From an uncultured Gammaproteobacteria bacterium (GTDB taxonomy: Bacteria > Patescibacteriota > Microgenomatia > Levybacterales > UBA12049), in NCBI GenBank assembly GCA_965230895.1, contig OZ246394.1, forward strand, positions 1,377,887-1,441,886: DNA of 64,000 nt, in the 5' to 3' direction. This document shows positions 5,507 through 61,754 of this stretch, piece after piece; the stretch's first letter is position 1, and every line of letters starts with the position of its first letter. A program made the translations under genes and the position numbers. The notes under the pieces were generated by a model. That model was not told the DNA's origin. It did not search any database and saw only the letters and a list, made by a program, of their open reading frames with translations.

Positions 5507-7273
5507 ATGAAGTTTACTGAACTGACAACATATTTTGAAAAATTAGAAGAAACCTCTTCACGACTTGCCCTTATTGATATCCTCGCAGAACTATTTAAAA
5601 AGACCGATGGGACGACTGTTGATAAGGTGATGTATCTTGCACAAGGTCGTGTCGCACCATTTTACGAACCGACAGAGATCGGTATGGCAGATAAAATGGT
5701 TGCGCAAAGTATCGGTGAAGCTTTCGGTCTAACCAAGGATGAAGTCCTCGATGCATATGCAAAGAAGGGTGATTTAGGGTTGGTGGCATTTGAACTTTCT
5801 GAGAAAGAGCGAAAGAAAGGGAAGAAGGATGAACTTTCCGTTGTGACTGTTTTTGATGAGCTCACCAAGATCGCCAATACAAGTGGTGTTGGATCTGTCG
5901 AGAAAAAGATAACTGCTTTGAAGGAACTGCTTGAGCATATGGATGCGGTTTCCGCAAAGCATTTGGTTCGTATCCCTTTGGGAAAGACACGACTTGGTAT
6001 CGGAGATCCGACGATCCTTGATGGTATCGCGATTGCAATACTTGGCGATAAAAAGCATCGTAAGCTTTTGGAGAAAGCATACAATGAAACATCTGATTTG
6101 GGATTGATCGGAAAGACGTTGGTTGAAAGTGGTTTGGAAGCTGTACAAAAGCTTGGTGTCACGGTCGGCCGTCCGATCCGGTCTGAACTCTGTGAACGCC
6201 TACCAAATCCGGTGAAGGTATTTGAGAAGATGGATACCGATGGATTGGGTGTCCATGCTACATATAAATATGATGGTTTCCGTGTCCAGATCCACAAAAA
6301 TGGAGATAAGGTCGAGATGTTTTCGCGAAACCTTGAAGACATGACGCACATGTTTCCAGAACTTATCGAAGGAACGCTCAAACAAATCAAAGCAAAGACA
6401 GTTATCTTAGATTCAGAAGCAATGGCGTATCAACCTGAATCTGAGGAATTCCTTCCATTCCAGGAAACCACCAAACGCCGCCGCAAACATAACATCGAAG
6501 CAATGGCAGAGTCACTTCCGTTGAAAGCGTTCGTTTTTGACATACTTTACGTTGACGGCAAATCACTCCTCGGAACGCCTCTGAATGAACGTGTTGAAAT
6601 CATGAAGAAGACGATTGCAGGGGATGATATTTTGATTCCGGAGCCGGGGACAATTATGAAAAAGCCTGAAGATTTGCAGCTTATGCTTGATGATGCATTC
6701 ACCCAAGGACTTGAAGGTGTTGTGATCAAACGACCAGATTCAGGATACGAAGCAGGTGGACGAAACTTTAATTGGGTCAAACTTAAGAAGCATTCTGCTG
6801 GTGATTTGAATGACACAATTGATTGCGTTATCCTTGGATATATTTATGGGAAAGGGAAACGAACGGAGTTTGGCGCAGGTGCTTTATTGGTCGGGTTATA
6901 TGATAAAGACCAGGATCAATTTGTCTCTGTAACGCGCATTGGAACCGGTTTGTCAGACGATGAATGGCGAAGTATCAAAGAGAAAGTACATGGTCTAGAA
7001 ACCGATCACAAGCCCGCTCGTGTGCATTCATTGATCACTCCAAGTGTCTGGGTAAAACCTGAAGTTGTAATTGAAGTTTTGGCTGATGAAATCACCAGAA
7101 GCCCTCTCCATACCGCTGGTTCAAAGTTTGATGAAAAGGTTGGAAAAGACCTTGGGTATGCGCTCCGATTTCCGAGATTAGTTTCCTTCAGAGATAAAGA
7201 TAAAAAGGCAGAAGATGCGACAAGTGTGGAAGAATTAATTGAGATGTTCAACGATCAGGGAAAGAAAGAATAA
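5507..7273 (+). CDS. lig: ATP-dependent DNA ligase (archaeal/eukaryotic Lig1-type)
   Basis: Adenylation motif KYDGFRV (KxDG). N-terminal DNA-binding domain. OB-fold motif LEGVVIKRPDSGYEAG. 588 aa. Confidence 0.85.
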   Translation: MKFTELTTYFEKLEETSSRLALIDILAELFKKTDGTTVDKVMYLAQGRVAPFYEPTEIGMADKMVAQSIGEAFGLTKDEVLDAYAKKGDLGLVAFELSEKERKKGKKDELSVVTVFDELTKIANTSGVGSVEKKITALKELLEHMDAVSAKHLVRIPLGKTRLGIGDPTILDGIAIAILGDKKHRKLLEKAYNETSDLGLIGKTLVESGLEAVQKLGVTVGRPIRSELCERLPNPVKVFEKMDTDGLGVHATYKYDGFRVQIHKNGDKVEMFSRNLEDMTHMFPELIEGTLKQIKAKTVILDSEAMAYQPESEEFLPFQETTKRRRKHNIEAMAESLPLKAFVFDILYVDGKSLLGTPLNERVEIMKKTIAGDDILIPEPGTIMKKPEDLQLMLDDAFTQGLEGVVIKRPDSGYEAGGRNFNWVKLKKHSAGDLNDTIDCVILGYIYGKGKRTEFGAGALLVGLYDKDQDQFVSVTRIGTGLSDDEWRSIKEKVHGLETDHKPARVHSLITPSVWVKPEVVIEVLADEITRSPLHTAGSKFDEKVGKDLGYALRFPRLVSFRDKDKKAEDATSVEELIEMFNDQGKKE

Positions 7274-15658: not shown

Positions 15659-15889
15659 AGTTTTGCAAGTGAAATCAAGCATTGAGGCAAACCCTCTAGT
15701 AAGAGAGGGTTTGCCTGAGTGACTTGATGATAGATACTCCTTCATCTTTAGATGAATGAGGCTCTTTAAAAAGTGAAGAGAATATCCTGAATTGTGTTTT
15801 GTCTGCACCCGCAGACGTCCATGGCGCAATCCAGGATAAAATAATCATGTCTTAAATCTTTACCTACATTACGGTAGGTAAAGTTGAAA

Positions 15890-19135
<3,246 letters not shown>

Positions 19136-19213
19136 ATTTTAATAGACATGTTTTTCTCTTCACTCTTTGAGGAGCTTCGAAAGGAGCAGCTCAGTACTTT
19201 AATAACAAAAATT

Positions 19214-26210: not shown

Positions 26211-27075
26211 TTATCCTTGTCTTTTCGTTTCTTCAGTGCTGTATTCCCACAAAAAAAGCTCATCTTCTTGAAAGAAGTAGGAGCTCCTGCCCAAAGCTCC
26301 TACCTCATCTAAAAAGATGAGCCTACGTGAAAACATTTTCATGAAAAATATTGATGTATCAATGCAATTGCTGATTTTTAGCTTCAGTAATTTTCTTGAC
26401 AACACAATATCATTTCAGATATATTTTCTTTGACAGTTAGTTTTATTCCTGCCTGAAGGACTAAATGTCATTTACCCTAAGAGCATTGCTTATCGTACCT
26501 GAACTTATCATTTTGAGTAACGAAAGTGATGCTCTTTTTTTTGTTTAAATTTATATATACAGACTCAAAACTCTCTCTTCTGCAATTTCTTCAAAGAACA
26601 TTTTACCCAAAATACTCCTCTCAGTCGCAAAGCTCTGAACCAATACGTATAAATCTAGCTTATAAATGTGCTACTGGAACGGTTAACCCTTTCTCCATCA
26701 ATTTTTCAAACTGTTCTCGACCTTGTTCTACCAAAGCCTCACGTTTGTGATCATCAACCGTTTTCAGTGAAATGTCTTTCTTTTTGGACAGAAAAACGGT
26801 TAACCATTCCATAAACTGCATAAATAGTATCATAACCGAAAATACTTGTCAACCTATAATATTGTATATGCAAAAAAGCACATAACCTATAATAAATTTA
26901 TATAAATTTAGCTTGATATATCAACGTTTATAACTTATAAACATTTATGTGGATAACTTTTGAATAAAATTAACAGTTCTCCACAATGCCATTTTTGACA
27001 CATTAATGAGGAGCTGTTGATAATAGGGAACGTTCCCCAAGAGATGAATAAGTTAGAAGTTAACGCGAGATATGA

Positions 27076-27933
27076 CTACGCATTTCGAAGGATAGCAGGG
27101 AGTGTTGTCCTGATACTTGGTCGGTATTCATGATTTGCTCGAGATGAAAGCCATAGTCTCATCATAGAAACAAATTGCTTTACGCGTGATCTATTGCGTA
27201 CGCCACGCTTGATTCCTTCTCTGTGGAAGTACAGTGATTGTTTAATGTTTGCTACCTTTCCGTATTGGAAGAATTTGACAAAAACTTCAGTAAAGACAAA
27301 TGGATATTTATTGTGCTTGAAATAAAGCAGATCCTTTGGAAGCATCATACGATCAACCATAACTGTTTCAGGGTGAAGTGGGGAAGCTGGCAACAAGTTG
27401 TCATAGATCTCTTCTGGAGTTTCTGGAAGACTACTTCGTTCAAGCTTTTTATTATCATCATTGATACTCGTAAATTGTGTTCCAACAGCAACAGTTTTTG
27501 GATGATTCATCAGAAAGTTTACTTGTCTTTTGAATCTACTAATAGAATTAATATCGTTTGGATTCATAAAGGCGATAAATCGTCCATGTGCTTTCTTCAT
27601 TGCGCGGTTGTAGCAAATTGCGAGACCATACCGTTTTTTATTTGTGTAGATTTCAAGGTTTTTGAATTCCTTTTTGAAGTGCTTCAAAATGGCAAGAGAG
27701 TCATCGCGTGAATGATCGTCAATAGCGATGATTTGTAAATCTTGGTATGTTTGTTCCTGAAGACTAGCCAAACACTCTGGCAAGAACTTCCCTGCGTTAT
27801 AAACAGGCAGAATAACAGTGACAACTGAGTCCTTGAATTTCATACTTGGATTCTTTTTATACGCAGTAATTAGGCAGACGTATAATGGGGCAGAAGAGGG
27901 GTAAAGACTAACAAACATTAGAGTCTTTGTCAA
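27076..27933 (-). CDS. family-2 glycosyltransferase
   Basis: VILPVYNAGKFL ... IIAIDDHSRDDS (DxD) motifs. The likely real start is MKFKD at 27843. Confidence 0.75.
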   Translation of the reverse strand: MTKTLMFVSLYPSSAPLYVCLITAYKKNPSMKFKDSVVTVILPVYNAGKFLPECLASLQEQTYQDLQIIAIDDHSRDDSLAILKHFKKEFKNLEIYTNKKRYGLAICYNRAMKKAHGRFIAFMNPNDINSISRFKRQVNFLMNHPKTVAVGTQFTSINDDNKKLERSSLPETPEEIYDNLLPASPLHPETVMVDRMMLPKDLLYFKHNKYPFVFTEVFVKFFQYGKVANIKQSLYFHREGIKRGVRNRSRVKQFVSMMRLWLSSRANHEYRPSIRTTLPAILRNA

Positions 27934-28028
27934 GTTTTAGCCTCAAGTTAGTCTCATTTTACTAGGTGAAGAAATAAACAGAGATGCCTCAAATGATATT
28001 AGCGGCATGAATATATTATCCTATAATA

Positions 28029-28057
28029 TTGACTTCTAGTCACGAAATTGCTATATT
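28029..28057 (+). promoter_or_regulatory. candidate promoter TTGACT-17-TATATT
   Basis: Read from the sequence, about 200 nt upstream of the G+C-rich module. Confidence 0.35.
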
Positions 28058-28258
28058 TACACCCATAGTAATGTAAGATTGGGTATATTGCGCTCTTTTT
28101 CTTATAGATCTATATTCTTGCACGTTAACAGTTAATGGAAAGTAATGTAGCACCAGTAGGTGGCATAGTGAGTATCATGCTTGGTACTTAGTATGCCATC
28201 TTAACTGGCTACACAACACACGGAGGTAATCATCACTGACAACGAAGCCAGGGCCAGC

Positions 28259-28444
28259 TTGCAGAGACTCTACTTAGAGGATCCAAAAGCGTACAGGGTT
28301 CTGGAAATGTGGGTCAGGTTCGGTTATGGACAGTTTGATCGAGAATCGACAACGAATCTGGTCAAACTTGGACTGATGAATGCAGAAGGAACGATTCCAG
28401 ACTCTGTTCGGGAAGAAATTCTTTCTGTCGGCGGCCACGGATAA
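28259..28444 (+). CDS. hypothetical small protein (61 aa), first gene of the G+C-rich module
   Basis: Track ORF. G+C-rich codon usage unlike the host. My manual read places a TTG start at 28258; see the rejected notes. Confidence 0.3.
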   Translation: MQRLYLEDPKAYRVLEMWVRFGYGQFDRESTTNLVKLGLMNAEGTIPDSVREEILSVGGHG

Positions 28445-28467
28445 CATCGAGACTACGAGGAGACAGC

Positions 28468-28749
28468 ATGACTGACAACTTTTCCGAGCGAGTGATTACG
28501 ATCACGTCGTCAGGAAGAAATGCAAAGGACTGGATCGATGCAGCGATTTCAGTGGTACAAGGTGCTTACAGACTCGAGATGCGTCGTACAGGTGACAACA
28601 CCGCAGAGGTGACATGTTCCACGATGGAGCAGGCGCATCCTCTGATGTACACGCTGATGGCTCTGGACCTCACTGAGATCAAGATCGCCAAGGCACCTCG
28701 TCGTCGTATCCGCACACGCAGAACTCCAAACGAGAACGGAGCAAAGTAA
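28468..28749 (+). CDS. hypothetical small protein (93 aa, basic C-terminus)
   Basis: Track ORF with a verified ATG. Its stop overlaps the next start (TAATG). Confidence 0.4.
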   Translation: MTDNFSERVITITSSGRNAKDWIDAAISVVQGAYRLEMRRTGDNTAEVTCSTMEQAHPLMYTLMALDLTEIKIAKAPRRRIRTRRTPNENGAK

Positions 28750-29060
28750 TGATCGGTCAACCGTTCACAATGCGAGATGGTTCAAATGTTTCGATAGGAG
28801 ACGTGTTTCCCATTCTGGAGAAGCTACGAATTCTTCGCGACAAGAACTACTCTGCATTCGAGGCTCTCGTGCTAGCAGTCCGCAACTTCGGTCCTGTTCC
28901 ACAACCGTTCAGGTCTGACCTGGATGCGTTCTGCAATGCAGAAACAGGGTGTGTCCCAAACGACATCGACGCCGTTGTGCTCTTCGGGACTCACTTCGAC
29001 CGTAATTCGGACGAACACATCGTGATCAATCTCGAGAACGGGGAGGCAAGTCAGCAATGA
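28749..29060 (+). CDS. hypothetical small protein (103 aa)
   Basis: Track ORF. Start overlaps the upstream stop. Its stop overlaps the next start (ATGA). Confidence 0.4.
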   Translation: MIGQPFTMRDGSNVSIGDVFPILEKLRILRDKNYSAFEALVLAVRNFGPVPQPFRSDLDAFCNAETGCVPNDIDAVVLFGTHFDRNSDEHIVINLENGEASQQ

Positions 29061-29311
29061 CCCAAGTTCAAGGAAAGTGTGAGATCACTGTTCGTACGTC
29101 CGGTGACGAAAGCCTGACACAGGGCCTGGTGGCTACGCTGCGAAAGCGGTTCGGTTCGTCACTCCCTGTGGAGTCGAGTAAGGCTGTCGTGACGATCATC
29201 GTCCTGACTATCAATCTCGAGTCAGTGCTGACGCTCATCTTCACCGAAGTTCAAACACTCACCAACGACGACGTGGACATCGACTTCATCGATCCCGACA
29301 TGTCTGACTGA
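29057..29311 (+). CDS. hypothetical small protein (84 aa, hydrophobic stretch)
   Basis: Track ORF coupled to the previous ORF by an ATGA overlap. Confidence 0.35.
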   Translation: MTQVQGKCEITVRTSGDESLTQGLVATLRKRFGSSLPVESSKAVVTIIVLTINLESVLTLIFTEVQTLTNDDVDIDFIDPDMSD

Positions 29312-29425
29312 GTCATGACAATCATCACGAGATCGCGAGGACCTCCCGACATCCTACGAAAAGGAGCACACCATGCAAGTCGCATGAGTAAGTGAAAGTG
29401 TACTTTCCAACAACTGAATAGTGCA

Positions 29426-29549
29426 TTAAGGCATTAGGTCACCTTCGGGTGAAAAAGTTAGTTGAGCCGGATGGACTCAGTCTCCCTGTCAATTGCGACA
29501 GACTTGAGATTGACCCCTCCGACTATACTGACCCCTAATGCCTTTTTGC
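29426..29549 (+). ncRNA. structured element: long-range stem AAGGCATTAGG/CCTAATGCCTT enclosing a UUCG-tetraloop hairpin, followed by a T-run
   Basis: The inverted repeat and the TCACC-TTCG-GGTGA hairpin were read directly. The 3' arm is followed by TTTTTG. A TGACCCCT direct repeat lies inside. Confidence 0.35.
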
Positions 29550-29585
29550 TGTTTATGAAGTGTTAAATTTGGTATTATAAGTGTA

Positions 29586-31814
29586 ATGCTCAGACTACCT
29601 TTTATTGATAACCTACCTGTTGCAAAGATTTTTTCAGATCCGGGAGATCGGATTGTCCTCGAGATAAAAACCACACGTACTGGCGAAGAAACACCTGAGG
29701 CTATGATGCAATTCCTGGCCGGGCTTACTAATATGAAAAAGCGAGCGCTTGAATTATGGTGGCGGGGGATCCCTTTTAGCCTGGAGTTAGCGGTTATTGA
29801 TCAGACTATTCATTTTTATGTCACGGTTCCAGCTGAATTTCGTACCTTTCTTGAGAGCCAATTGATCGCGCAATATCCGAAATCTCTTGTCACGCCATCA
29901 CGTGATTATCTCGCAGATATTTTAGAAGATGATGAGACATTAACCGTTGGACAAATGAAGTTAACGCATGGTCCGATTTATCCGATCAAGAGTTATAAAG
30001 AGTTTCATGAAATTGATCCTTTCTCAACATTACTCGGGCTTCTCTCAAAATCACAAATTGGTGACAAGATCGCTATACAATATCAACTGTTGCCTGTGAA
30101 TAAATCCTGGCAATCACATGGCTACAAAACAGCGAGACAGAAAACGACAGACGCTTCCGGTAAAGAAACTGCAAATCCTTGGGCAAAACTTATTGAGCAG
30201 AAGATTGCACATGATGGTTTCAAAACAGCAATTCGCTTGGCAGTAAAAGCTTCTGATAAGTCTCGAAGTAATCAGTTAATGCATCTGCTTGCACATAGTT
30301 TTGCAGGCGTTAACAATCCTTCAGGTAACAATTTGTCTTATCATAGGACGTTTCTGTGGCAGCGAAAAAGACTTATCAATAGCATGTTAAGCAGAAGTCG
30401 TTACTTCATGCCAAACCAAATCCTCAACGTCGAGGAACTTGCGACGCTCTATCATTTCCCCTCAGCTAAATTGGCAAAGATTCATAATATTTCTTGGTAT
30501 AAAAGTATTTATTCTGATCCACCGGAAGAACTTCCGATCTCAGAACGCATGACTGACGATGAAAAGAAAGAAGTTAATTTCTTCGGCAGAACCGAATACA
30601 AGAACCGTATGACAACGTTTGGCATTAAAGCAAATGACAGACGAAGGCATATGTATATCATCGGAAAGACAGGAACAGGAAAATCGACGTTGATTGCAAA
30701 TATGGCGATCAGTGATATTCGGAACAATAAAGGCGTTTGCATTGTTGATCCTCATGGGGATCTTTGTGAGAAGATTCTTGATTACATCCCTTCATATCGA
30801 ATCAATGACGTGGTCTATCTTGATCCATCGGATTTGGATTACGCCTTCATGCTGAATCCGCTTGAAGTAACGGATAGTTATCAAATGGAATTGGTGGTTT
30901 CTGGAATCGTAGGTATCTTCCACAAGATCTATGGTAATTCCTGGGGTCCGAGGCTTGAATATATTCTCCGTAATGCTTTGTTCACCTTAACACATTTACC
31001 AAATCCGACACTCCTTATGGTCCCTGAACTGCTTACCAATGATGCTTTCCGCAAAGAAGTGCTCAAGAAGGTCGATGATCCTGTATTGAAAAGTTATTGG
31101 GAAGGGGAGTTTGCAAATATGCCTGATCGACTGAAGAGTGAATCCATCTCTCCAATTTTGAATAAGGTTGGGCAGTTTATTTCTTCACGATTTATTCGTA
31201 ATATTCTGCAGAATCCGAAGTCAACGATCAATCTTGAAAAGATCATGAATGAACGGAAGATTTTGCTTTTGAATTTGTCTCAAGGAAAACTTGGGGAAGA
31301 CAATTCTGCATTGCTTGGAGCGATGATTATTACCAAAATTCAATTGGCAGCTATGAATCGTGTCTCTATCGCAGAACATGATAGACAAGATTTTTATCTC
31401 TATGTAGACGAGTTCCAGAATTTTGCTACAAGTTCTTTTATCAAGATTCTTTCGGAAGCTCGAAAGTACCGATTGAACTTAATTCTTGCTAATCAATATA
31501 TTTCTCAGATTCCTCAAGATGTTCGTGGTTCAATCTTTGGTAATGCTGGAACAATCTTCTCATTTCTTCTTGGTTCAGAAGACGCAAGTTTTATGGCACG
31601 AGAGTTTAAAGAGCGGTTCAAAGACGAAGACTTGCTTGCATTAGGCAATCATCAAGGTATTGTAAAGCTAGCAATTGATGGGATTACCCAAGAGCCATTT
31701 CTCTGCTATACATTGCCGTTGCCAAATAGCGCGACACAAAATCGTTTGAAGGTAATCAGTAACTCCCGGATGAGATATATGAAGAAGGTGGGGGGCTTAA
31801 GCCTTTTTTCTTAA
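29586..31814 (+). CDS. HerA/VirB4-like P-loop ATPase (DUF87-type) with uncharacterised N-terminal domain
   Basis: Walker A IIGKTGTGKST followed by IVDPHGDL, matching the HerA/VirB4 D-P-x-G-E/D motif. Walker B LYVDEFQNF. The first 300 aa match nothing I recognise. Confidence 0.6.
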   Translation: MLRLPFIDNLPVAKIFSDPGDRIVLEIKTTRTGEETPEAMMQFLAGLTNMKKRALELWWRGIPFSLELAVIDQTIHFYVTVPAEFRTFLESQLIAQYPKSLVTPSRDYLADILEDDETLTVGQMKLTHGPIYPIKSYKEFHEIDPFSTLLGLLSKSQIGDKIAIQYQLLPVNKSWQSHGYKTARQKTTDASGKETANPWAKLIEQKIAHDGFKTAIRLAVKASDKSRSNQLMHLLAHSFAGVNNPSGNNLSYHRTFLWQRKRLINSMLSRSRYFMPNQILNVEELATLYHFPSAKLAKIHNISWYKSIYSDPPEELPISERMTDDEKKEVNFFGRTEYKNRMTTFGIKANDRRRHMYIIGKTGTGKSTLIANMAISDIRNNKGVCIVDPHGDLCEKILDYIPSYRINDVVYLDPSDLDYAFMLNPLEVTDSYQMELVVSGIVGIFHKIYGNSWGPRLEYILRNALFTLTHLPNPTLLMVPELLTNDAFRKEVLKKVDDPVLKSYWEGEFANMPDRLKSESISPILNKVGQFISSRFIRNILQNPKSTINLEKIMNERKILLLNLSQGKLGEDNSALLGAMIITKIQLAAMNRVSIAEHDRQDFYLYVDEFQNFATSSFIKILSEARKYRLNLILANQYISQIPQDVRGSIFGNAGTIFSFLLGSEDASFMAREFKERFKDEDLLALGNHQGIVKLAIDGITQEPFLCYTLPLPNSATQNRLKVISNSRMRYMKKVGGLSLFS

Positions 31815-55825: not shown

Positions 55826-58800
55826 TTAATTAACAATCCACCAGTTAAATGTGATATCTTTTGTCGCATTATTTGATATTTGGATAGTGAAAGATCCTTT
55901 TTTGCCAGTTTGTGTATCTTGAGCTGTTTGCCGAGCTACATAAAGTGTCATTTTCTGTGTATCAGACGTCGCTGTCACGTAAATCAATGAATCCTTTGTC
56001 ACGTAAGGAGTGAAAATTGTTCGTTCTTTTTGTTTTGCTTTAATGATGCCTTTGCCAGCTGAATTATTGGAAGTTGTTTCAACGACTGAAGTATCTGCTT
56101 GTACTCCTCGTACAATATTAATATTTGCGAACTTACCTGCACCGGATGCTTCAACATCACCTTTTTGGCTGACTCGTACAACATCTTTTCCTTGATTGTT
56201 CTCAACTGTGAGGTCTGAACCCGGAACTGGCGCAATGATGTTTGCTGCCAATTTTCCTTTAACCGTAACATCCTTTGCAAAGAATGCATTACCATTTACT
56301 TCGAGATTACCTTGGGTATCGATAGCAACTTTACCATTGACGAACTCTACGCCATTAAATCCATCTGATTGGATTCGAAGTGGACCTGAGGCCGTATTAA
56401 TTGTAGCAGTGCCTTCATCATCAAGTCCGTTAATGTTCATGAGTCCTACTGTCACTTTTCCAGTAATTCCAACGTCAGAAAGGGTTGTTCTGCCAAGGAC
56501 AGAAAGTGTATTTGAAACTGTAGCATCCCGCGTGTCCAATTTCTCAAGTCCTAGTTCTGTTGGAGTTCGTAACGTATCCATGAATGTTTGTGGATCTTGA
56601 GAGAGCATTTCACTTACTTCTGAGCTAAATTCGGCAGCAGGGGAAGCTGCTGGACTTTGTGTTACTGAAGGACTTGCCACAGGTGTCGCTGATGGAGTGC
56701 TCATGATTCGAGTGATAGTAGGTGTCGGTATACTATTATAGATAGGCATAATCGTTGCTGCTGGAGATGCAACTCTTTGAGCCGCGACTGTCGCCGTTGC
56801 ACTTTGTGTTGCTTCACTAGCTTGAATAGCTGCAGTTGTCGCATTTGGTTGTGTGTATGCAATTTCTGCAGATGCAGTTGCTGCAACGGTTAATCCCTCC
56901 AATGCATCTGCTGATGGAAGATCTGTCTTTGCTTGTCCAGTGATTCTTTCAACAATTCCTGCGATGTAGTCATCTATGTGTTGTCCATTAATGAAAAGGT
57001 CGGTTGATGTAATGTTCAAACTTTGTGTAGTAATTTCGGTAACTTTTATCACTGACGCGATAAAGCCATTTTCAGCCTTTTCATTTTGTTGATCAGTTGC
57101 TGTAGCAATGCCTGCATTAACAGCCAAATTCAAATCGCCAGCATCTGTGACTTGTGATTGCGGAACCTGATAAGAGATATTTACGAATGACATTACCTTT
57201 CCAATAGCATTTGGATCAGTATTGTCATAACTTTCGAGTGCTCGAGCGATGATCTGTCCAGGTCGTGTCGCTTTCATCGCAACTCCTGGTATGTTTGAAG
57301 AGGTGAGGGGATCTCCCGCTTTAATCGCTCCATTACTTGTTGTCACTTTCACTGGCACTCTTCCTTGTAATGCCAATGGATACACATTTGGATGGTCAGC
57401 ATCTGGAGCTGCATCTGAATTGAGGGTAAAACCAGGCTTAGTTGATATGATACCTATCACTTGAGATTGGTATGATGTAGTTGATTTTACAACTGCTTGA
57501 TTGTTCTGGAGACTTTCAGGTATTACAACGTCACCTGGTTCAAGTGTTTGCGCTGAAACATAATTCTCTGCTAAGTCAGCTGCTTGTACTGTTGTGTTCG
57601 CTGCATAGATAGTTCCAGGTGTTGAACCAGCACAAGCGCCAGCAGTTGCTCGGACGCAAATAGAACCAGCAACATTAAATGCTCTGAGTGATTGATTCCA
57701 TGCAATTGATGGGTCTTGGACGAGTTGAGCATTTGCGCCAATAAATGGTAGTGCACCTGGTGTAAAACCAGTCAATGTAAAATTCTTTCCAGCAGCAACT
57801 GTCATTCCTTCATTTGCATTAATTAAACCATTGGCATTAACTGTACCGTTTAATTTACTTTCACCTTTTACTTCTATACTATTATTAATAGTCGTAACGC
57901 CTGTCTTTCCACCAAGTGAAAGGGTGGTGGCATTATCACCGATTGTTAAATTGGTTACATTTGTATTAGCAATACCGAATGTGTTACTGTTTGATGCTAT
58001 AGTATTTCCGTTTATAGCAATGTTTCCAGCGAACATTCCATCTCCTGCAGCGTTAACTCTGAATTTAGCAACATCATTGGCAAAACCGCTAATGATATCG
58101 TCACCTGAATTTTGTTTGACAGTAAGGGCTGAACGTCCATTTGTATTCCCGAGGATAGCAACGATGTCGGTAATTGTTACCGCGCCTGGTATGCCTGCAG
58201 CAGTGTTATTGCTTGTAGTATTTTGGATTGGAGCTTGCATGTCTATAATACCCGAACCATCAGTCGTTAATTGGATATTGCCATTTGATCCAGGGTTTGT
58301 AGTAAGAACCATTGTTTGGCCTGATAATGTAAATTGGCCTCCAGTAGCTTGGAATGTAGGACTAGCACTGCCTCCTATAGTTAAATCACCTGATGAGTCT
58401 AAAGCCAAAATTACGTTCTCAGTCGCCGCACTGTTTGTTATAGGCTTTAAGCCCTGTAGTGCTTGAGAATTGCTTGCTAAACCTGTTGTTGCGATCTGTC
58501 TTCGAGGCTGCAATTCTGCATCTCTTCCTACAGTCAAACCTACATAAAGGTTAGGGTTAGACGTAAGTAATTGCTGAGTTAGTGTTGCTTTCTTTCCAAG
58601 TGCTGTCGTGAAATAGCCATCCTGGTCTGGGGTTACACTTTGTGTTTCTTGCCAGAGCAATGCTGCTCCTGAAGCAGTTGGGCTATTATATAGCGCAAAC
58701 CGCAGCTTCGTTTCTGCGGTGATTGGTGTATTTGTTTTGTCCATTAGTCTTCCTTGGAAAGCGAGTGTTCGCGGAGGAGATATTGGTTGCGAGGCAAGAG

Positions 58801-60127
58801 CTGCAGTGTTTTTACTTGGTGGTTCAACAGCAGCCTGGTAACTTGCTACACCTGCAACAGCCATAGCAAATATAAGGATTGCGAAATGAATATGATGGGC
58901 GATAGGGTATGAATGATACTTCTTATACCATGCTGGACGAGTATGTCTCATATGGTGCCAGACTCTCTGATACCATGGTAGATTCTTAAGAGAAATACTC
59001 AATGGCGCATAAAACGATTTAGAAATATTCCTTACGAAATATGGTTTTGCTTTCGTCTTAATTCGGACAAGATCACCCACAACTGTAGCCGTCCTAGTGG
59101 TTATGCGAGTTATAGTACTAACCTTTTTAGGCAATATTACTTCTATTGGCTCAACCGGTAGTTTGTGACCGGCATTTTCTAAAATGGTGTTAACTGGAGT
59201 AAATACGCTCTTGCCTGAATTCTTCCATAATGAATATTGTACAGCCTCAGCACCTTTAGCTATAGGGTTAAATATTAGCGAATCAAATAGGTGACTGACA
59301 AACTTAGTCGTTTTTTGTCCGAGTCGGATTGGAGCAAAGCTGGAATATTTTGTCTCTTTCGGTAATTCTTCCTCAGGTGTGATTTCCTTCAAAGCGGTTA
59401 GGGGCAAGGGTGCTGCTTCCGGTATAATCTTTTGGACTATGGTCTCTTCAGGTTCAACTTTCTCAACCTTTTCTTCAACTATTACTGGTTCTCTTTTAAC
59501 TAGTCCTTGATCACTCAACCAACGGAGATATCTTCGAAGTGAGGAGAGCTTTCTATTTATAGATGTAGGTGAAAACTTCGAATCACTCATTAACCTTTCT
59601 TTATAATGCTCAACCGTTGCAGTATCTATCATAATGAATCGGTTATCCTTTGATACGATATCATCGACATTTACCTTCTCGAACCACAAAAGAAATTGGT
59701 GGATATCATGCAAATAATTCTTGATCGTTAATTTGCTGGCGCCAGTTGCAACGAGAGAATTTTTATATGGTTTTATTTGCCAAGGGTCTTCAATTACTTT
59801 CGGAGAATCGGTAATTATTGCGTCAAATGGATTTGCCTCAATCGCCCCAGAATCGCGTAGGAAGCGACAAAACTTTCTTAATGATGAAATGTACCTCTTT
59901 GCAGAACGAGTAGCGACGACAGAACCTTGACTGTTTTCATTAAGACTCTGTTGATAGTTCTTTATAAGCTCGGGAGATAGATTTGAAGCTGAAAATGTAC
60001 TACCCTCAGTCTTTTCATACCATTGAATGAACTTCCTTACGTCAGAAAGGTAGTTTTTCACAGTTACCTTGCTAGGTTTATTCCTGTCTGTGAAAAGATG
60101 TAATCTAAAATCATTTACTATATCCAT
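55826..60127 (-). CDS. giant membrane-spanning protein (1433 aa): two N-terminal integrase core-binding (SAM-like) domains, TM helix, large extracellular beta-rich region
   Basis: Core-binding-domain-like segments TVKNYLSDVRKFIQW...YISSLRKFCRFLRDSGAIEANPFDAI and TIKNYLHDIHQFLLWF...KLSSLRRYLRWLSDQGLV. TM helix HFAILIFAMAVAGVASY. FQGRL N-domain and C-terminal domain shared with the 2527-aa protein. Confidence 0.65.
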   Translation of the reverse strand: MDIVNDFRLHLFTDRNKPSKVTVKNYLSDVRKFIQWYEKTEGSTFSASNLSPELIKNYQQSLNENSQGSVVATRSAKRYISSLRKFCRFLRDSGAIEANPFDAIITDSPKVIEDPWQIKPYKNSLVATGASKLTIKNYLHDIHQFLLWFEKVNVDDIVSKDNRFIMIDTATVEHYKERLMSDSKFSPTSINRKLSSLRRYLRWLSDQGLVKREPVIVEEKVEKVEPEETIVQKIIPEAAPLPLTALKEITPEEELPKETKYSSFAPIRLGQKTTKFVSHLFDSLIFNPIAKGAEAVQYSLWKNSGKSVFTPVNTILENAGHKLPVEPIEVILPKKVSTITRITTRTATVVGDLVRIKTKAKPYFVRNISKSFYAPLSISLKNLPWYQRVWHHMRHTRPAWYKKYHSYPIAHHIHFAILIFAMAVAGVASYQAAVEPPSKNTAALASQPISPPRTLAFQGRLMDKTNTPITAETKLRFALYNSPTASGAALLWQETQSVTPDQDGYFTTALGKKATLTQQLLTSNPNLYVGLTVGRDAELQPRRQIATTGLASNSQALQGLKPITNSAATENVILALDSSGDLTIGGSASPTFQATGGQFTLSGQTMVLTTNPGSNGNIQLTTDGSGIIDMQAPIQNTTSNNTAAGIPGAVTITDIVAILGNTNGRSALTVKQNSGDDIISGFANDVAKFRVNAAGDGMFAGNIAINGNTIASNSNTFGIANTNVTNLTIGDNATTLSLGGKTGVTTINNSIEVKGESKLNGTVNANGLINANEGMTVAAGKNFTLTGFTPGALPFIGANAQLVQDPSIAWNQSLRAFNVAGSICVRATAGACAGSTPGTIYAANTTVQAADLAENYVSAQTLEPGDVVIPESLQNNQAVVKSTTSYQSQVIGIISTKPGFTLNSDAAPDADHPNVYPLALQGRVPVKVTTSNGAIKAGDPLTSSNIPGVAMKATRPGQIIARALESYDNTDPNAIGKVMSFVNISYQVPQSQVTDAGDLNLAVNAGIATATDQQNEKAENGFIASVIKVTEITTQSLNITSTDLFINGQHIDDYIAGIVERITGQAKTDLPSADALEGLTVAATASAEIAYTQPNATTAAIQASEATQSATATVAAQRVASPAATIMPIYNSIPTPTITRIMSTPSATPVASPSVTQSPAASPAAEFSSEVSEMLSQDPQTFMDTLRTPTELGLEKLDTRDATVSNTLSVLGRTTLSDVGITGKVTVGLMNINGLDDEGTATINTASGPLRIQSDGFNGVEFVNGKVAIDTQGNLEVNGNAFFAKDVTVKGKLAANIIAPVPGSDLTVENNQGKDVVRVSQKGDVEASGAGKFANINIVRGVQADTSVVETTSNNSAGKGIIKAKQKERTIFTPYVTKDSLIYVTATSDTQKMTLYVARQTAQDTQTGKKGSFTIQISNNATKDITFNWWIVN

Positions 60128-61754
60128 GGCAGTTTATTGTGAAAACTCGTTACTTAATAAAATACGAAAACTCTTGTTTAGCTACGAAATTATACTGATT
60201 ATACCGATTATCAACGTTAAAAATGAGCTCTTAAACTAGAATATATAAAATGTTATTTGGATGTCAATAAGCTGGGGGCATATTGATATGTTTGGATACT
60301 CTTTGTTATTGTCGTGTTTTCATGATTTTAGCCTTAATGGTTACACATAGCTGTTTTAAAGGTTAAATTGCCTTAAAAATGCGGAAATTACTGCTATATT
60401 TCGTATTTTTCGTGAAGATATTTTTATTCTAGCCACGATTTGTGCCTATTGAGTTTGAGCACTCTTTACACAGTAATGCTCTGCAAAATGACTAAAAATG
60501 CTTGTAATATGGGATGTTTTTATTAACGAATATTTTAAGAGAAATATGATTCAATAGTAATTGAACTGTGTTTTTGATCTTCCGCAAAATGCTTGAAAGT
60601 GGTTATTTGGCATTCAGAATAGACTAGTGATAGCTTTCCTGAATGATTGTTTGGTTTGAATTGACAATCCAAATGTTTAATTACCGATATTTTACGATAG
60701 CATCATATGATTAATTGTACATACTGGCATCGCTGTTCGTTAATAGTGTGAGTTTGATGAAATCCATTTATAGCATGATCGGTAAAATCATACTATAAAT
60801 GGATCATTTATTTGTTGGGGTTTCTATATAAAGTTCTTACGATACCTTTCTTAGTGGAAGTAAAATAGCCTCAATATACCTAAACAGCGCTTATCATGGT
60901 TGTGAAATAGTGTTTTCACTAGGGTTAGCTCAATGGTGAAGTGAAGGATGTTAAGTCATATTTATAGTATAACATCTCAAAAATAAATAGTAGTAATAAA
61001 CGATAGCTAAACTGGTTATTTTAATAGTCCTATATTTATTAATTTGTTTCCACTCATTAGTGAATCCTATTTGCAACTTGTCAATAATTTTAAATTTAGC
61101 CTTGTAATAGAAGACAAGCTGAGAAGCCCTAGAAGGCCCATGAAATATTTCTGCTGTATAATTTATCATCCTATTAACGTATATGTAGGCTAAAGTTTTT
61201 GATAGATGTTTTGCAGTAAAAAGTTGAAGTATTGAGGCTAAAAATAAATTAATGTATATAGTAACTCGTATCTAATATGCATTAGAGTCTTAGAGTGATA
61301 GCACTATAAATACGGTAGTAGCTTTGATATCTATAAGATATGGAATGATCCAATAGTATGTGGCTACTATTCTCTAAGCATATCTAGAGGGATTTCTGCT
61401 AAAAGTTGATTTCTATAGTGTTATGACTATAATCGAGTAATAAGTGATGTTCTTGTGTCTATTTGGGGAAAGGGCTAGGTATTACAAATATACCTAAAAG
61501 GAGCTCTAGAGTTAATATTTAATAGAGTAGTGTAATATGGATATTACTATTGACAAAGTCTATTTAGCAGACTTCGTTTGACTATGATAGTTTGCGAACA
61601 GGTTGATTTGACAACCTAAACAAATAAATGCTGACATGTGTTTTTTAGAAGGCATTCAGATGCGTTTTAAGGCACGCAAATTCCTTTACCAGACTCATTG
61701 ATCATTATACAAAGACCTTAAAAAGCTCTAAATGATACATTTGAGTACTAGAAT

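Follow-up and report, generated by a model that had tools for sequence, protein, structure and literature searches.

We report an islet of four small orphan genes (open reading frames ORF1 to ORF4, 28200-29320) in a 64-kb stretch of DNA, hereafter the window, from a Levyibacteria-like bacterium of the Candidate Phyla Radiation (CPR, Patescibacteria). The islet has a foreign composition, carries coding signals, is absent from related loci, lies in a slot whose contents vary from relative to relative, and encodes products for which no homologues were found. The horizontal transfer of the module is well supported, because its base composition and codon usage are shifted, relatives with syntenic flanks lack it, and ORF2, ORF3 and ORF4 have no detected homologues. 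On balance, we consider it probable that the module, which is strain-specific and occupies a hypervariable slot, was acquired horizontally as a fragment of an operon of the mobile-element or phage type. The type of donor, the expression and the function of the module are what we infer.

The window has a G+C content of about 41% (0.409). It contains tRNA-Ala, 23S and 5S rRNA genes as well as chromosomal genes for an amylase, an S1 protein, RadA, a PIN/TRAM protein, a family-2 glycosyltransferase (GT2), Rho, a LysM-M23 peptidase and surface proteins. Nine independent Logan contigs, drawn from several sequencing runs, carry the islet locus with 100% identity, and in the JGI gene table the gene layout matches and the ORF2 product is identical. 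These agreements exclude an assembly artefact.

Base composition and codon usage of the islet

The G+C content of 28200-29320 was 0.515, compared with 0.409 for the whole window. This is the maximum among all 1.1-kb windows (mean 0.410, standard deviation 0.032; about +3.4 standard deviations), and it exceeds even that of the 23S rRNA gene. The flanks reach 0.36 (27934-28227), 0.38 (GT2 gene on the left) and 0.40 (ATPase gene on the right). Maximum-likelihood two-state segmentation placed the G+C-rich segment at 28205-29535, with an uncertainty of about 100-150 nt at each edge (left 28135-28250, right 29385-29560). Both borders are fairly sharp and fall inside non-coding DNA.

Codon usage was shifted as well. 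The G+C content at codon positions 1, 2 and 3 (GC1/2/3) was 0.56/0.41/0.58 in the islet versus 0.50/0.39/0.33 in 37 host ORFs (standard deviation of GC3, 0.056), and the synonymous-codon log-likelihood under host usage gave z = -4.6 for the whole module and -3.8 to -6.2 for the individual ORFs. An earlier note on this DNA had described the module as richer in G+C than its flanks and its codon choice as G/C-ending and unlike that of the host; both descriptions are borne out by these values.

The slot in related genomes

We compared the window with 87 related loci, which were recovered via the ATPase gene and fetched centred on it. Most of them are labelled Candidatus Levyibacteriota, which places the source organism in the CPR, and a few are evidently mis-binned contigs. 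None of the 87 loci contained a homologue of ORF1-ORF4. The closest relative, with an ATPase 81% identical to that of the window, is a single metagenome-assembled genome represented by two loci, L013 and L009. The former shares the left flank (RadA, PIN/TRAM and GT2 genes), and the latter shares the right flank (the ATPase gene, which encodes a type IV coupling protein (T4CP) homologue, followed by DUF11, Rho and LysM-M23 genes). At the DNA level, L013 is 69% identical to the window as far as position 27844, after which the similarity stops, and neither L013 nor L009 showed similarity to window 27934-29585. The slot of this closest relative holds about 1.5 kb of unrelated DNA with normal G+C content.

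Downstream, the order T4CP-DUF11-Rho is kept in six lineages; the upstream side is not. The slot between the GT2 and T4CP genes is hypervariable. It had been suggested that related genomes might carry an empty site there, and this was not the case, since the slot was never empty in the relatives and was filled with unrelated DNA, often G+C-rich.

High-G+C islands were located directly upstream of the orthologous ATPase gene in L008 (2551-5050), L010 (4101-5950) and L018 (1-1000), with a G+C content of 0.55-0.67 versus roughly 0.41-0.45. In L008 and L010, the GC3 of the island ORFs was 0.76-0.91, compared with 0.36-0.49 in the host; these genes are on the opposite strand, and by eye several of the products have an N-terminal hydrophobic segment and none a basic tail. 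The island ORFs of the relatives are orphans, unrelated to one another, to ORF1-ORF4 of the window and to Pfam, and the islands had no match in Rfam or in the phage and plasmid records searched.

High-G+C orphan islands upstream of the ATPase gene are thus found in 4 of 8 close lineages, the window included. Across about 148 kb of the clade, four of the five non-rRNA high-G+C segments sit just upstream of this gene. The fifth, in L019 (5401-7450), has a similarly high G+C content and lies after Rho, away from the T4CP gene. Because the loci were fetched centred on the ATPase, the association of islands with the T4CP gene is suggestive and not established.

Three other G+C-rich loci were rejected as islands after inspection by eye. 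In L031 and L026, a Pro/Ala-rich part of a PrgI-like membrane protein appears to account for the high G+C content, and in L037 rRNA probably does. Separately, a gene of L008 (5252-5944) that lies between the high-G+C island and the ATPase gene scored below threshold for the family of 23S-rRNA-intervening-sequence proteins (PF05635; 29.1 bits against a cut-off of 33.8 bits, E = 1.2e-6).

Architecture of the operon

All four ORFs are on the + strand. ORF2 (28468-28749) encodes a basic protein of 93 aa with an isoelectric point (pI) of 9.7, ORF3 (28749-29060) an acidic protein of 103 aa (pI 4.5), and ORF4 (29057-29311) an acidic protein of 84 aa (pI 4.2). These three ORFs are intact and chained by overlapping stop/start codons, the start of ORF3 overlapping the stop of ORF2 (TAATG) and the start of ORF4 that of ORF3 (ATGA). 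A GGAG or GAGG Shine-Dalgarno (SD) motif was found 4-16 nt ahead of 5/5 starts, counting that of a mini-ORF described below, against a background frequency of 0.108 in the island. In 4/4 ORFs, G+C content was lowest at codon position 2.

The start of ORF1 (28229-28444; about 70 aa, acidic, pI 5.0) is ambiguous. Its SD, GGAGG at 28222-28226, is followed by ATC ACT GAC AAC, mirroring the ATG ACT GAC AAC at the start of ORF2, and the two starts share a near-repeat of about 13 nt (D14; CATCACTGACAAC at ORF1, CATGACTGACAAC at ORF2). Possible starts are ATC at 28229 or 28232, TTG at 28259 (61 aa) and ATG at 28307 (45 aa), and gene callers disagree, giving 45 aa, 61 aa or no gene at all. From this pattern, ORF1 would encode about 70 aa, either with a non-canonical start or after the loss of its ATG. 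Of the four coupled ORFs of 61/93/103/84 aa listed before, the chain with its TAATG and ATGA junctions holds, and the 61-aa form of ORF1 is doubtful, as its TTG lies 32 nt past the SD.

Downstream of ORF4, an AAGGAG at 29361-29366 is followed by a + strand mini-ORF of four codons, MQVA plus stop, at 29373-29387, so the mini-ORF with a ribosome-binding site described earlier is indeed there. Local G+C content drops just after it and recovers only in a terminal hairpin. Probably a fifth gene was truncated where the acquired DNA ends on the right, and the mini-ORF is what is left of it.

Two strong hairpins bracket the ORFs. The leader hairpin (28146-28213, + strand; about 30 bp) lies in the 5' leader and ends 9 nt ahead of the first SD. 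The folding energy of 28058-28235 was -55.6 kcal/mol (z = -4.2), and the z-scores of 28100-28249 were -4.8 (+ strand) and -1.5 (- strand), indicating that the leader hairpin is + strand-specific. The terminal hairpin (29415-29555, + strand) is an extended structure of about 140 nt, with a main stem GGCATTAGG...CCTAATGCC and then TTTTT at 29543-29547. It folds with -64.6 kcal/mol (z = -7.15), which was matched by 0 of 200 shuffles, and both strands fold; its sequence is not conserved in relatives. By its form it resembles a terminator, and it sets the operon apart from the ATPase promoter. Upstream of the islet, in AT-rich and host-like DNA, there is a sigma-70-like promoter candidate (28029-28057, + strand; TTGACT-17-TATATT with TG, 10/12 consensus positions).

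Neither hairpin was matched in Rfam, and a scan of the islet region against this database returned nothing even at E <= 5. In the module interior, folding is no stronger than in shuffled sequence (z from -2.3 to +1.5). Given the unstructured interior, the empty Rfam scan, the G+C pattern over codon positions and the SD signals, the islet is read as protein-coding and not as structured RNA. The SD motifs, the overlapping stop/start codons and the terminal hairpin also support a single transcription unit for ORF1-ORF4, in agreement with the single operon proposed in the earlier note.

A 16-nt inverted repeat was found around the module, with its left arm CAGTTAATGGAAAGTA at 28129-28144, just outside the left G+C boundary, and its right arm TACTTTCCAACAACTG at 29401-29416. 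It is imperfect (14/16 complementary), and the two copies are the only ones in the 64 kb (0.21 expected); no further copy was present there or in the related loci, and the outer edges have no target-site duplication. Because the G+C borders are placed too loosely to lend significance to its position and the duplication is missing, the repeat stays a weak lead.

Predicted proteins and homology searches

The absence of any recognised family, claimed earlier from the translations, was confirmed for all four products in Pfam, PHROGs, PADLOC and NCBIfam. PHROGs gave nothing below E = 0.07 for ORF1-ORF4. Even at E <= 1, Pfam gave nothing and PADLOC nothing credible, the best PADLOC match being ORF4 against a type II methyltransferase model (E = 0.015, 12.6 bits). 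A sequence search of the PDB returned designed helical repeats and noise only. Against 5.8 billion proteins, ORF2, ORF3 and ORF4 each matched itself alone, and full HMMER with ORF3 against 1.84 billion representatives found ORF3 itself and two repeat-junk proteins only.

An AlphaFold2 single-sequence model of ORF2 reached a mean predicted local distance difference test score (pLDDT) of 79.9. The predicted structure has a ferredoxin-like β-α-β-β-α-β core (residues 8-75) and a disordered Arg-rich tail, APRRRIRTRRTPNENGAK, which on this model plausibly binds nucleic acid. Its nearest viral structure matches are many small uncharacterised phage proteins. ORF4 has a hydrophobic stretch at residues 44-62 (Kyte-Doolittle 19-residue maximum 2.26) and the tail DDVDIDFIDPDMSD; by eye, the hydrophobic stretch coincides with the would-be β3 and α2 of an ORF2-like fold. 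The basic RRRIRTRRTP tail and the hydrophobic stretch mentioned in the earlier note are therefore those of ORF2 and ORF4, respectively.

The N-terminal codons are common to ORF1 and ORF2 and, more loosely, ORF4. Comparison for internal duplication gave p = 0.018 for ORF1 versus ORF3 and p = 0.11 for ORF2 versus ORF4 before correction, and this evidence loses significance after correction for six comparisons.

Genes flanking the slot

The slot is bordered on the left by the GT2 gene (27076-27933, - strand; PF00535, E = 2.5e-28) and on the right by the ATPase gene (29586-31814, + strand), both outside the islet. The ATPase has a host-like G+C content (0.40) and the domains DUF8128, DUF87 and TrwB/TraG. 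Its best NCBIfam matches are to TraD, CedD and VirD4-like families, with scores that in every case fall far short of the curated cut-offs. In the distant relatives L026 (1187-4915) and L031 (2835-4857), the genes beside the ATPase encode what by eye are a VirB4-like ATPase and a PrgI-like membrane protein whose linker is rich in Pro and Ala, together with a protein of about 220-230 aa. This cluster resembles a type IV secretion system (T4SS); the ATPase of the window is solitary. From the TrwB/TraG domain makeup, the NCBIfam matches and the T4SS-like neighbours in distant relatives, the ATPase is, as judged by sequence, a VirD4/TraD-like coupling-protein homologue. An adjoining ATPase had been correctly noted before; its assignment to the HerA/VirB4 type gives way to that of a coupling protein. 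In Patescibacteria, T4SS and T4CP genes are widespread, the T4CP gene is usually far from virB4, and the role of the T4CP is unsettled (PMC12102498).

In the window (29556-29588), an extended -10 box, TGGTATTAT, lies about 12 nt ahead of the ATPase ATG. Such a -10-like box (TGGTATTAT, TGGTATGAT or TGCTATGAT) is found about 10-16 nt before the ATG in the window, L010 (5975-6003) and L013 (about 5665-5694), with no SD, which suggests that the ATPase mRNA is leaderless or has a very short leader and that this feature is kept across relatives. With a terminator-like hairpin and a separate promoter box between them, the operon would be insulated from the ATPase gene. We found nothing in the literature on DUF8128, on Levyibacteria complete genomes or under the accessions of the sequencing runs.

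Origin of the module and alternative explanations

Under the reading we prefer, an acquired fragment of a mobile-element or phage-type operon, the islet would measure about 1.25-1.4 kb, from 28146 to 29385 or 29555, and would come from an unsampled mobile element or phage of roughly 50-55% G+C. Transcription would start at or near 28029-28057, run through the stable leader hairpin and stop ahead of the separate ATPase promoter, at the 140-nt hairpin and its U-tract, and four small proteins would be made by translational coupling. None of the predicted products is enzyme-like: three would be small and acidic, and one basic and ferredoxin-like with an Arg-rich disordered tail. Their probable role is that of small binders or regulators, such as mobile elements carry for interference with the host or with defences, and ORF2 would probably bind nucleic acid. 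This copy may be partly decayed, as ORF1 is without a canonical start and the fifth gene appears truncated.

Several observations weigh against this reading. The promoter candidate noted earlier is present, yet it is no better than a chance match, since promoter-like sites are not enriched in the region (11 found versus 8.5±3.3 expected). The tetranucleotide usage that the earlier note had proposed as a check is ordinary once normalised for G+C (z = -0.67, rank 64/314), so that the anomaly of the islet is mainly one of base composition and third codon positions. The large protein-set searches covered three of the four products, ORF2, ORF3 and ORF4, the ORF3 model is unusable (pLDDT 49), and the fold of ORF2 is generic by structure comparison and thus puts no constraint on function. 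The module is known from one strain only. No integrase, transposase, tRNA or direct repeat was found at the borders or among the neighbours, in line with the earlier remark that integrase and visible att repeats are missing. Finally, blastn against 50,697 phage records and against plasmids, together with IMG/VR scans, yielded no relative of the module, so a mobile-element origin is drawn from its orphan status and gene architecture.

We also considered the classes to which such a module might be assigned. A prophage remnant found no support, as PHROGs, the phage records and IMG/VR were all without match, and a known anti-phage defence system found none for want of a credible PADLOC match to ORF1-ORF4. 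By domain, a type II toxin-antitoxin system was likewise unsupported, with no Pfam or NCBIfam domain and, in the generic ferredoxin-like fold of ORF2, no known toxin fold. Neither an integron gene cassette (both strands of 27900-29700 lack an RYYYAAC/GTTRRRY core pair, and no neighbouring gene is an integrase) nor a miniature inverted-repeat or other small transposon (one 14/16 inverted-repeat pair, no target-site duplication, no extra copies) was retained, and an Rfam-type structured RNA was dropped for lack of a covariance-model match and of a structured interior. Of the labels in the earlier note, horizontal acquisition thus agrees with the composition and the absence from relatives, and the anti-phage or anti-defence, toxin-antitoxin-like and phage-remnant labels found no match. 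Like other genomic islets, the module deviates in composition and codons and is missing from relatives that share its flanks; the mobility signatures of such islets were not seen. We would class it simply as an orphan-gene genomic islet and under no narrower heading.

The preferred reading has to be weighed against the possibility that the islet is inert, recently acquired random DNA in a tolerant intergenic slot, neither expressed nor selected. This we regard as unlikely, although several points speak for it: the SD of ORF1 is not followed by a canonical start, the fifth ORF appears cut short, ORF1 and also ORF2 are called differently by different gene callers, the module comes from one strain with a promoter match at chance level, and relatives hold different filler in the same slot. 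However, three of the ORFs are intact, with well-spaced SDs and coupled stop/start codons, and a leader hairpin and a strong terminator-like hairpin bracket the unit. CPR genomes are small and compact, and on general grounds the retention of 1.3 kb of junk would be unusual in them. That the genes are native and fast-evolving, with GC3 raised locally, for example by GC-biased gene conversion in a hotspot of recombination, seems improbable. The host-like tetranucleotide usage after G+C normalisation, the missing mobility signatures and the recurrence of high G+C content in the same slot of several relatives would fit such a process; but no residual similarity to the slot contents of relatives was left, GC3 is displaced by as much as +0.5 in L010 and by +0.25 in the islet, a large shift, and the G+C boundaries are fairly sharp and lie within non-coding DNA. 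A large structured non-coding RNA in place of genes is hardly credible. High G+C content is typical of RNA genes in an AT-rich genome, and both flanks are strongly structured, but Rfam was empty at E <= 5, the interior folds at the level of shuffled sequence, and the ORFs show a coding G+C pattern and SDs; for the module interior, folding, Rfam and coding signals effectively refute it.

Two further explanations assign the proteins a specific role. A toxin-antitoxin or anti-phage defence module in which ORF1-ORF2 and ORF3-ORF4 form a tandem pair of two-gene units would agree with the small coupled genes and their alternating acidic and basic products, with the similar N-terminal codons and weak hint of internal duplication, and with a variable location resembling the setting of a defence island. 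We hold it to be very unlikely, because PADLOC, Pfam and NCBIfam gave no match, no toxin fold is recognisable, the paralogy does not survive correction, and the module was found in no other genome, unlike mobile toxin-antitoxin or defence families. By analogy, the module might also serve the adjacent VirD4-like protein as a cassette of cargo or effectors, in which the ORF2 tail RRRIRTRR would be a recognition signal and the acidic partners would be chaperones or immunity proteins. Positively charged C-termini act as coupling-protein signals in Agrobacterium VirB/D4 substrates. The tail predicted for ORF2 is rich in Arg and disordered, about 30-200 nt separate the end of the module from the coupling-protein gene, and 4 of 8 close relatives, counting the window, have variable, foreign-looking genes there; the wide distribution and unsettled role of Patescibacterial T4SS and T4CP (PMC12102498) leave room for such a function. 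Nevertheless, a strong hairpin terminator and a separate promoter stand between the operon and the ATPase gene, the L008 and L010 island genes are on the opposite strand with products lacking basic tails, the L019 island is away from the T4CP gene, and the association is partly a sampling effect of ATPase-centred loci. We therefore give the cargo explanation little credence.

A bolder proposal, which we rate as a long shot, extends beyond this strain: the DNA just upstream of the chromosomal VirD4/TraD/CedD-like gene would be a preferred landing pad for foreign G+C-rich DNA in Levyibacteria-like CPR bacteria, and the islet possibly ATPase-linked cargo. ORF2 could then be a substrate recognised via its Arg-rich tail, or the DNA could have been imported by T4SS-like machinery, perhaps from the organism's host. 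If true, an acquisition hotspot at a DNA-translocase gene would offer a handle on how, and from whom, CPR bacteria gain foreign DNA. As organisms that depend on other cells, these bacteria have T4SS and T4CP genes whose role is still unsettled. As for the acquired operon fragment itself, it provides a well-documented foreign orphan-gene islet in a reduced CPR genome and adds four protein families without detected relatives, three of them searched in large protein sets.

Other observations in the window

To the left of the slot, the non-coding segment 26252-26551 (and also 26845-26960) is 79% identical to L013 2556-2881, compared with 69% for the neighbouring GT2 gene. On the - strand, 26252-26551 has a strong fold (z = -6.8), and its end is formed by a 28-bp hairpin (26258-26322) with a U-run after it. 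Rfam gave no match for this segment, which may represent a small RNA or the structured 3' untranslated region of a 57-aa ORF at 26660-26833. In the same region, independent Logan contigs from different runs repeatedly start or stop exactly at window positions 26513 and 27787, which suggests strain-level variants or branch points in the population.

The 23S rRNA match (15889-19139) spans 3251 nt, compared with a model of 2925 positions, and the gene may hold an insertion of roughly 300 nt, such as an intervening sequence or intron. Insertions are common in CPR rRNA genes. On the - strand, 55826-60127 encodes a 1433-aa protein which by eye has N-terminal repeats reminiscent of integrase core-binding (SAM-like) domains and is otherwise surface-protein-like. 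It is followed in coordinate order by 60130-61750, about 1.6 kb without a long ORF, with about 31% G+C and, besides rRNA, among the most aberrant tetranucleotide usage.

Comparison with known systems

The adjoining ATPase, a neighbour gene only, resembles Patescibacterial VirD4-type coupling proteins in its DUF87 and TrwB/TraG-D_C domains and in being encoded away from virB4 (PMC12102498), and differs from them in scores far below the curated cut-offs and in an N-terminal DUF8128. As for the module itself, it recalls integron cassettes and integrase-less attC clusters (CALIN arrays) in having small foreign orphan ORFs followed by an imperfect palindromic element. In contrast to those, it has no attC cores and no IntI-like neighbour, and its four genes have their own SDs and a promoter candidate.

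Further parallels are found in phage morons and the accessory blocks of mobile elements, including the anti-defence arrays of plasmid leading regions. Shared features are the small, coupled genes on the same strand, the promoter candidate and the terminator, as well as the small acidic proteins accompanied by a small ferredoxin-like protein, a fold common in uncharacterised phage proteins. Unlike such blocks, the module has no prophage or plasmid genes around it, no match in PHROGs, phage, plasmid or IMG/VR collections, and no markers of the ssb, psiB or ardA type.

Flexible-genome islets of ORFans are the remaining comparison. The present islet differs from these in having no integrase, tRNA target, direct repeat or insertion sequence and no homologues in any collection searched, and in belonging to a reduced-genome CPR host whose sister lineages carry unrelated high-G+C islands in the equivalent place. 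What it has in common with them is a deviant composition and codon usage, a position at a synteny breakpoint, and short, strain-specific genes.

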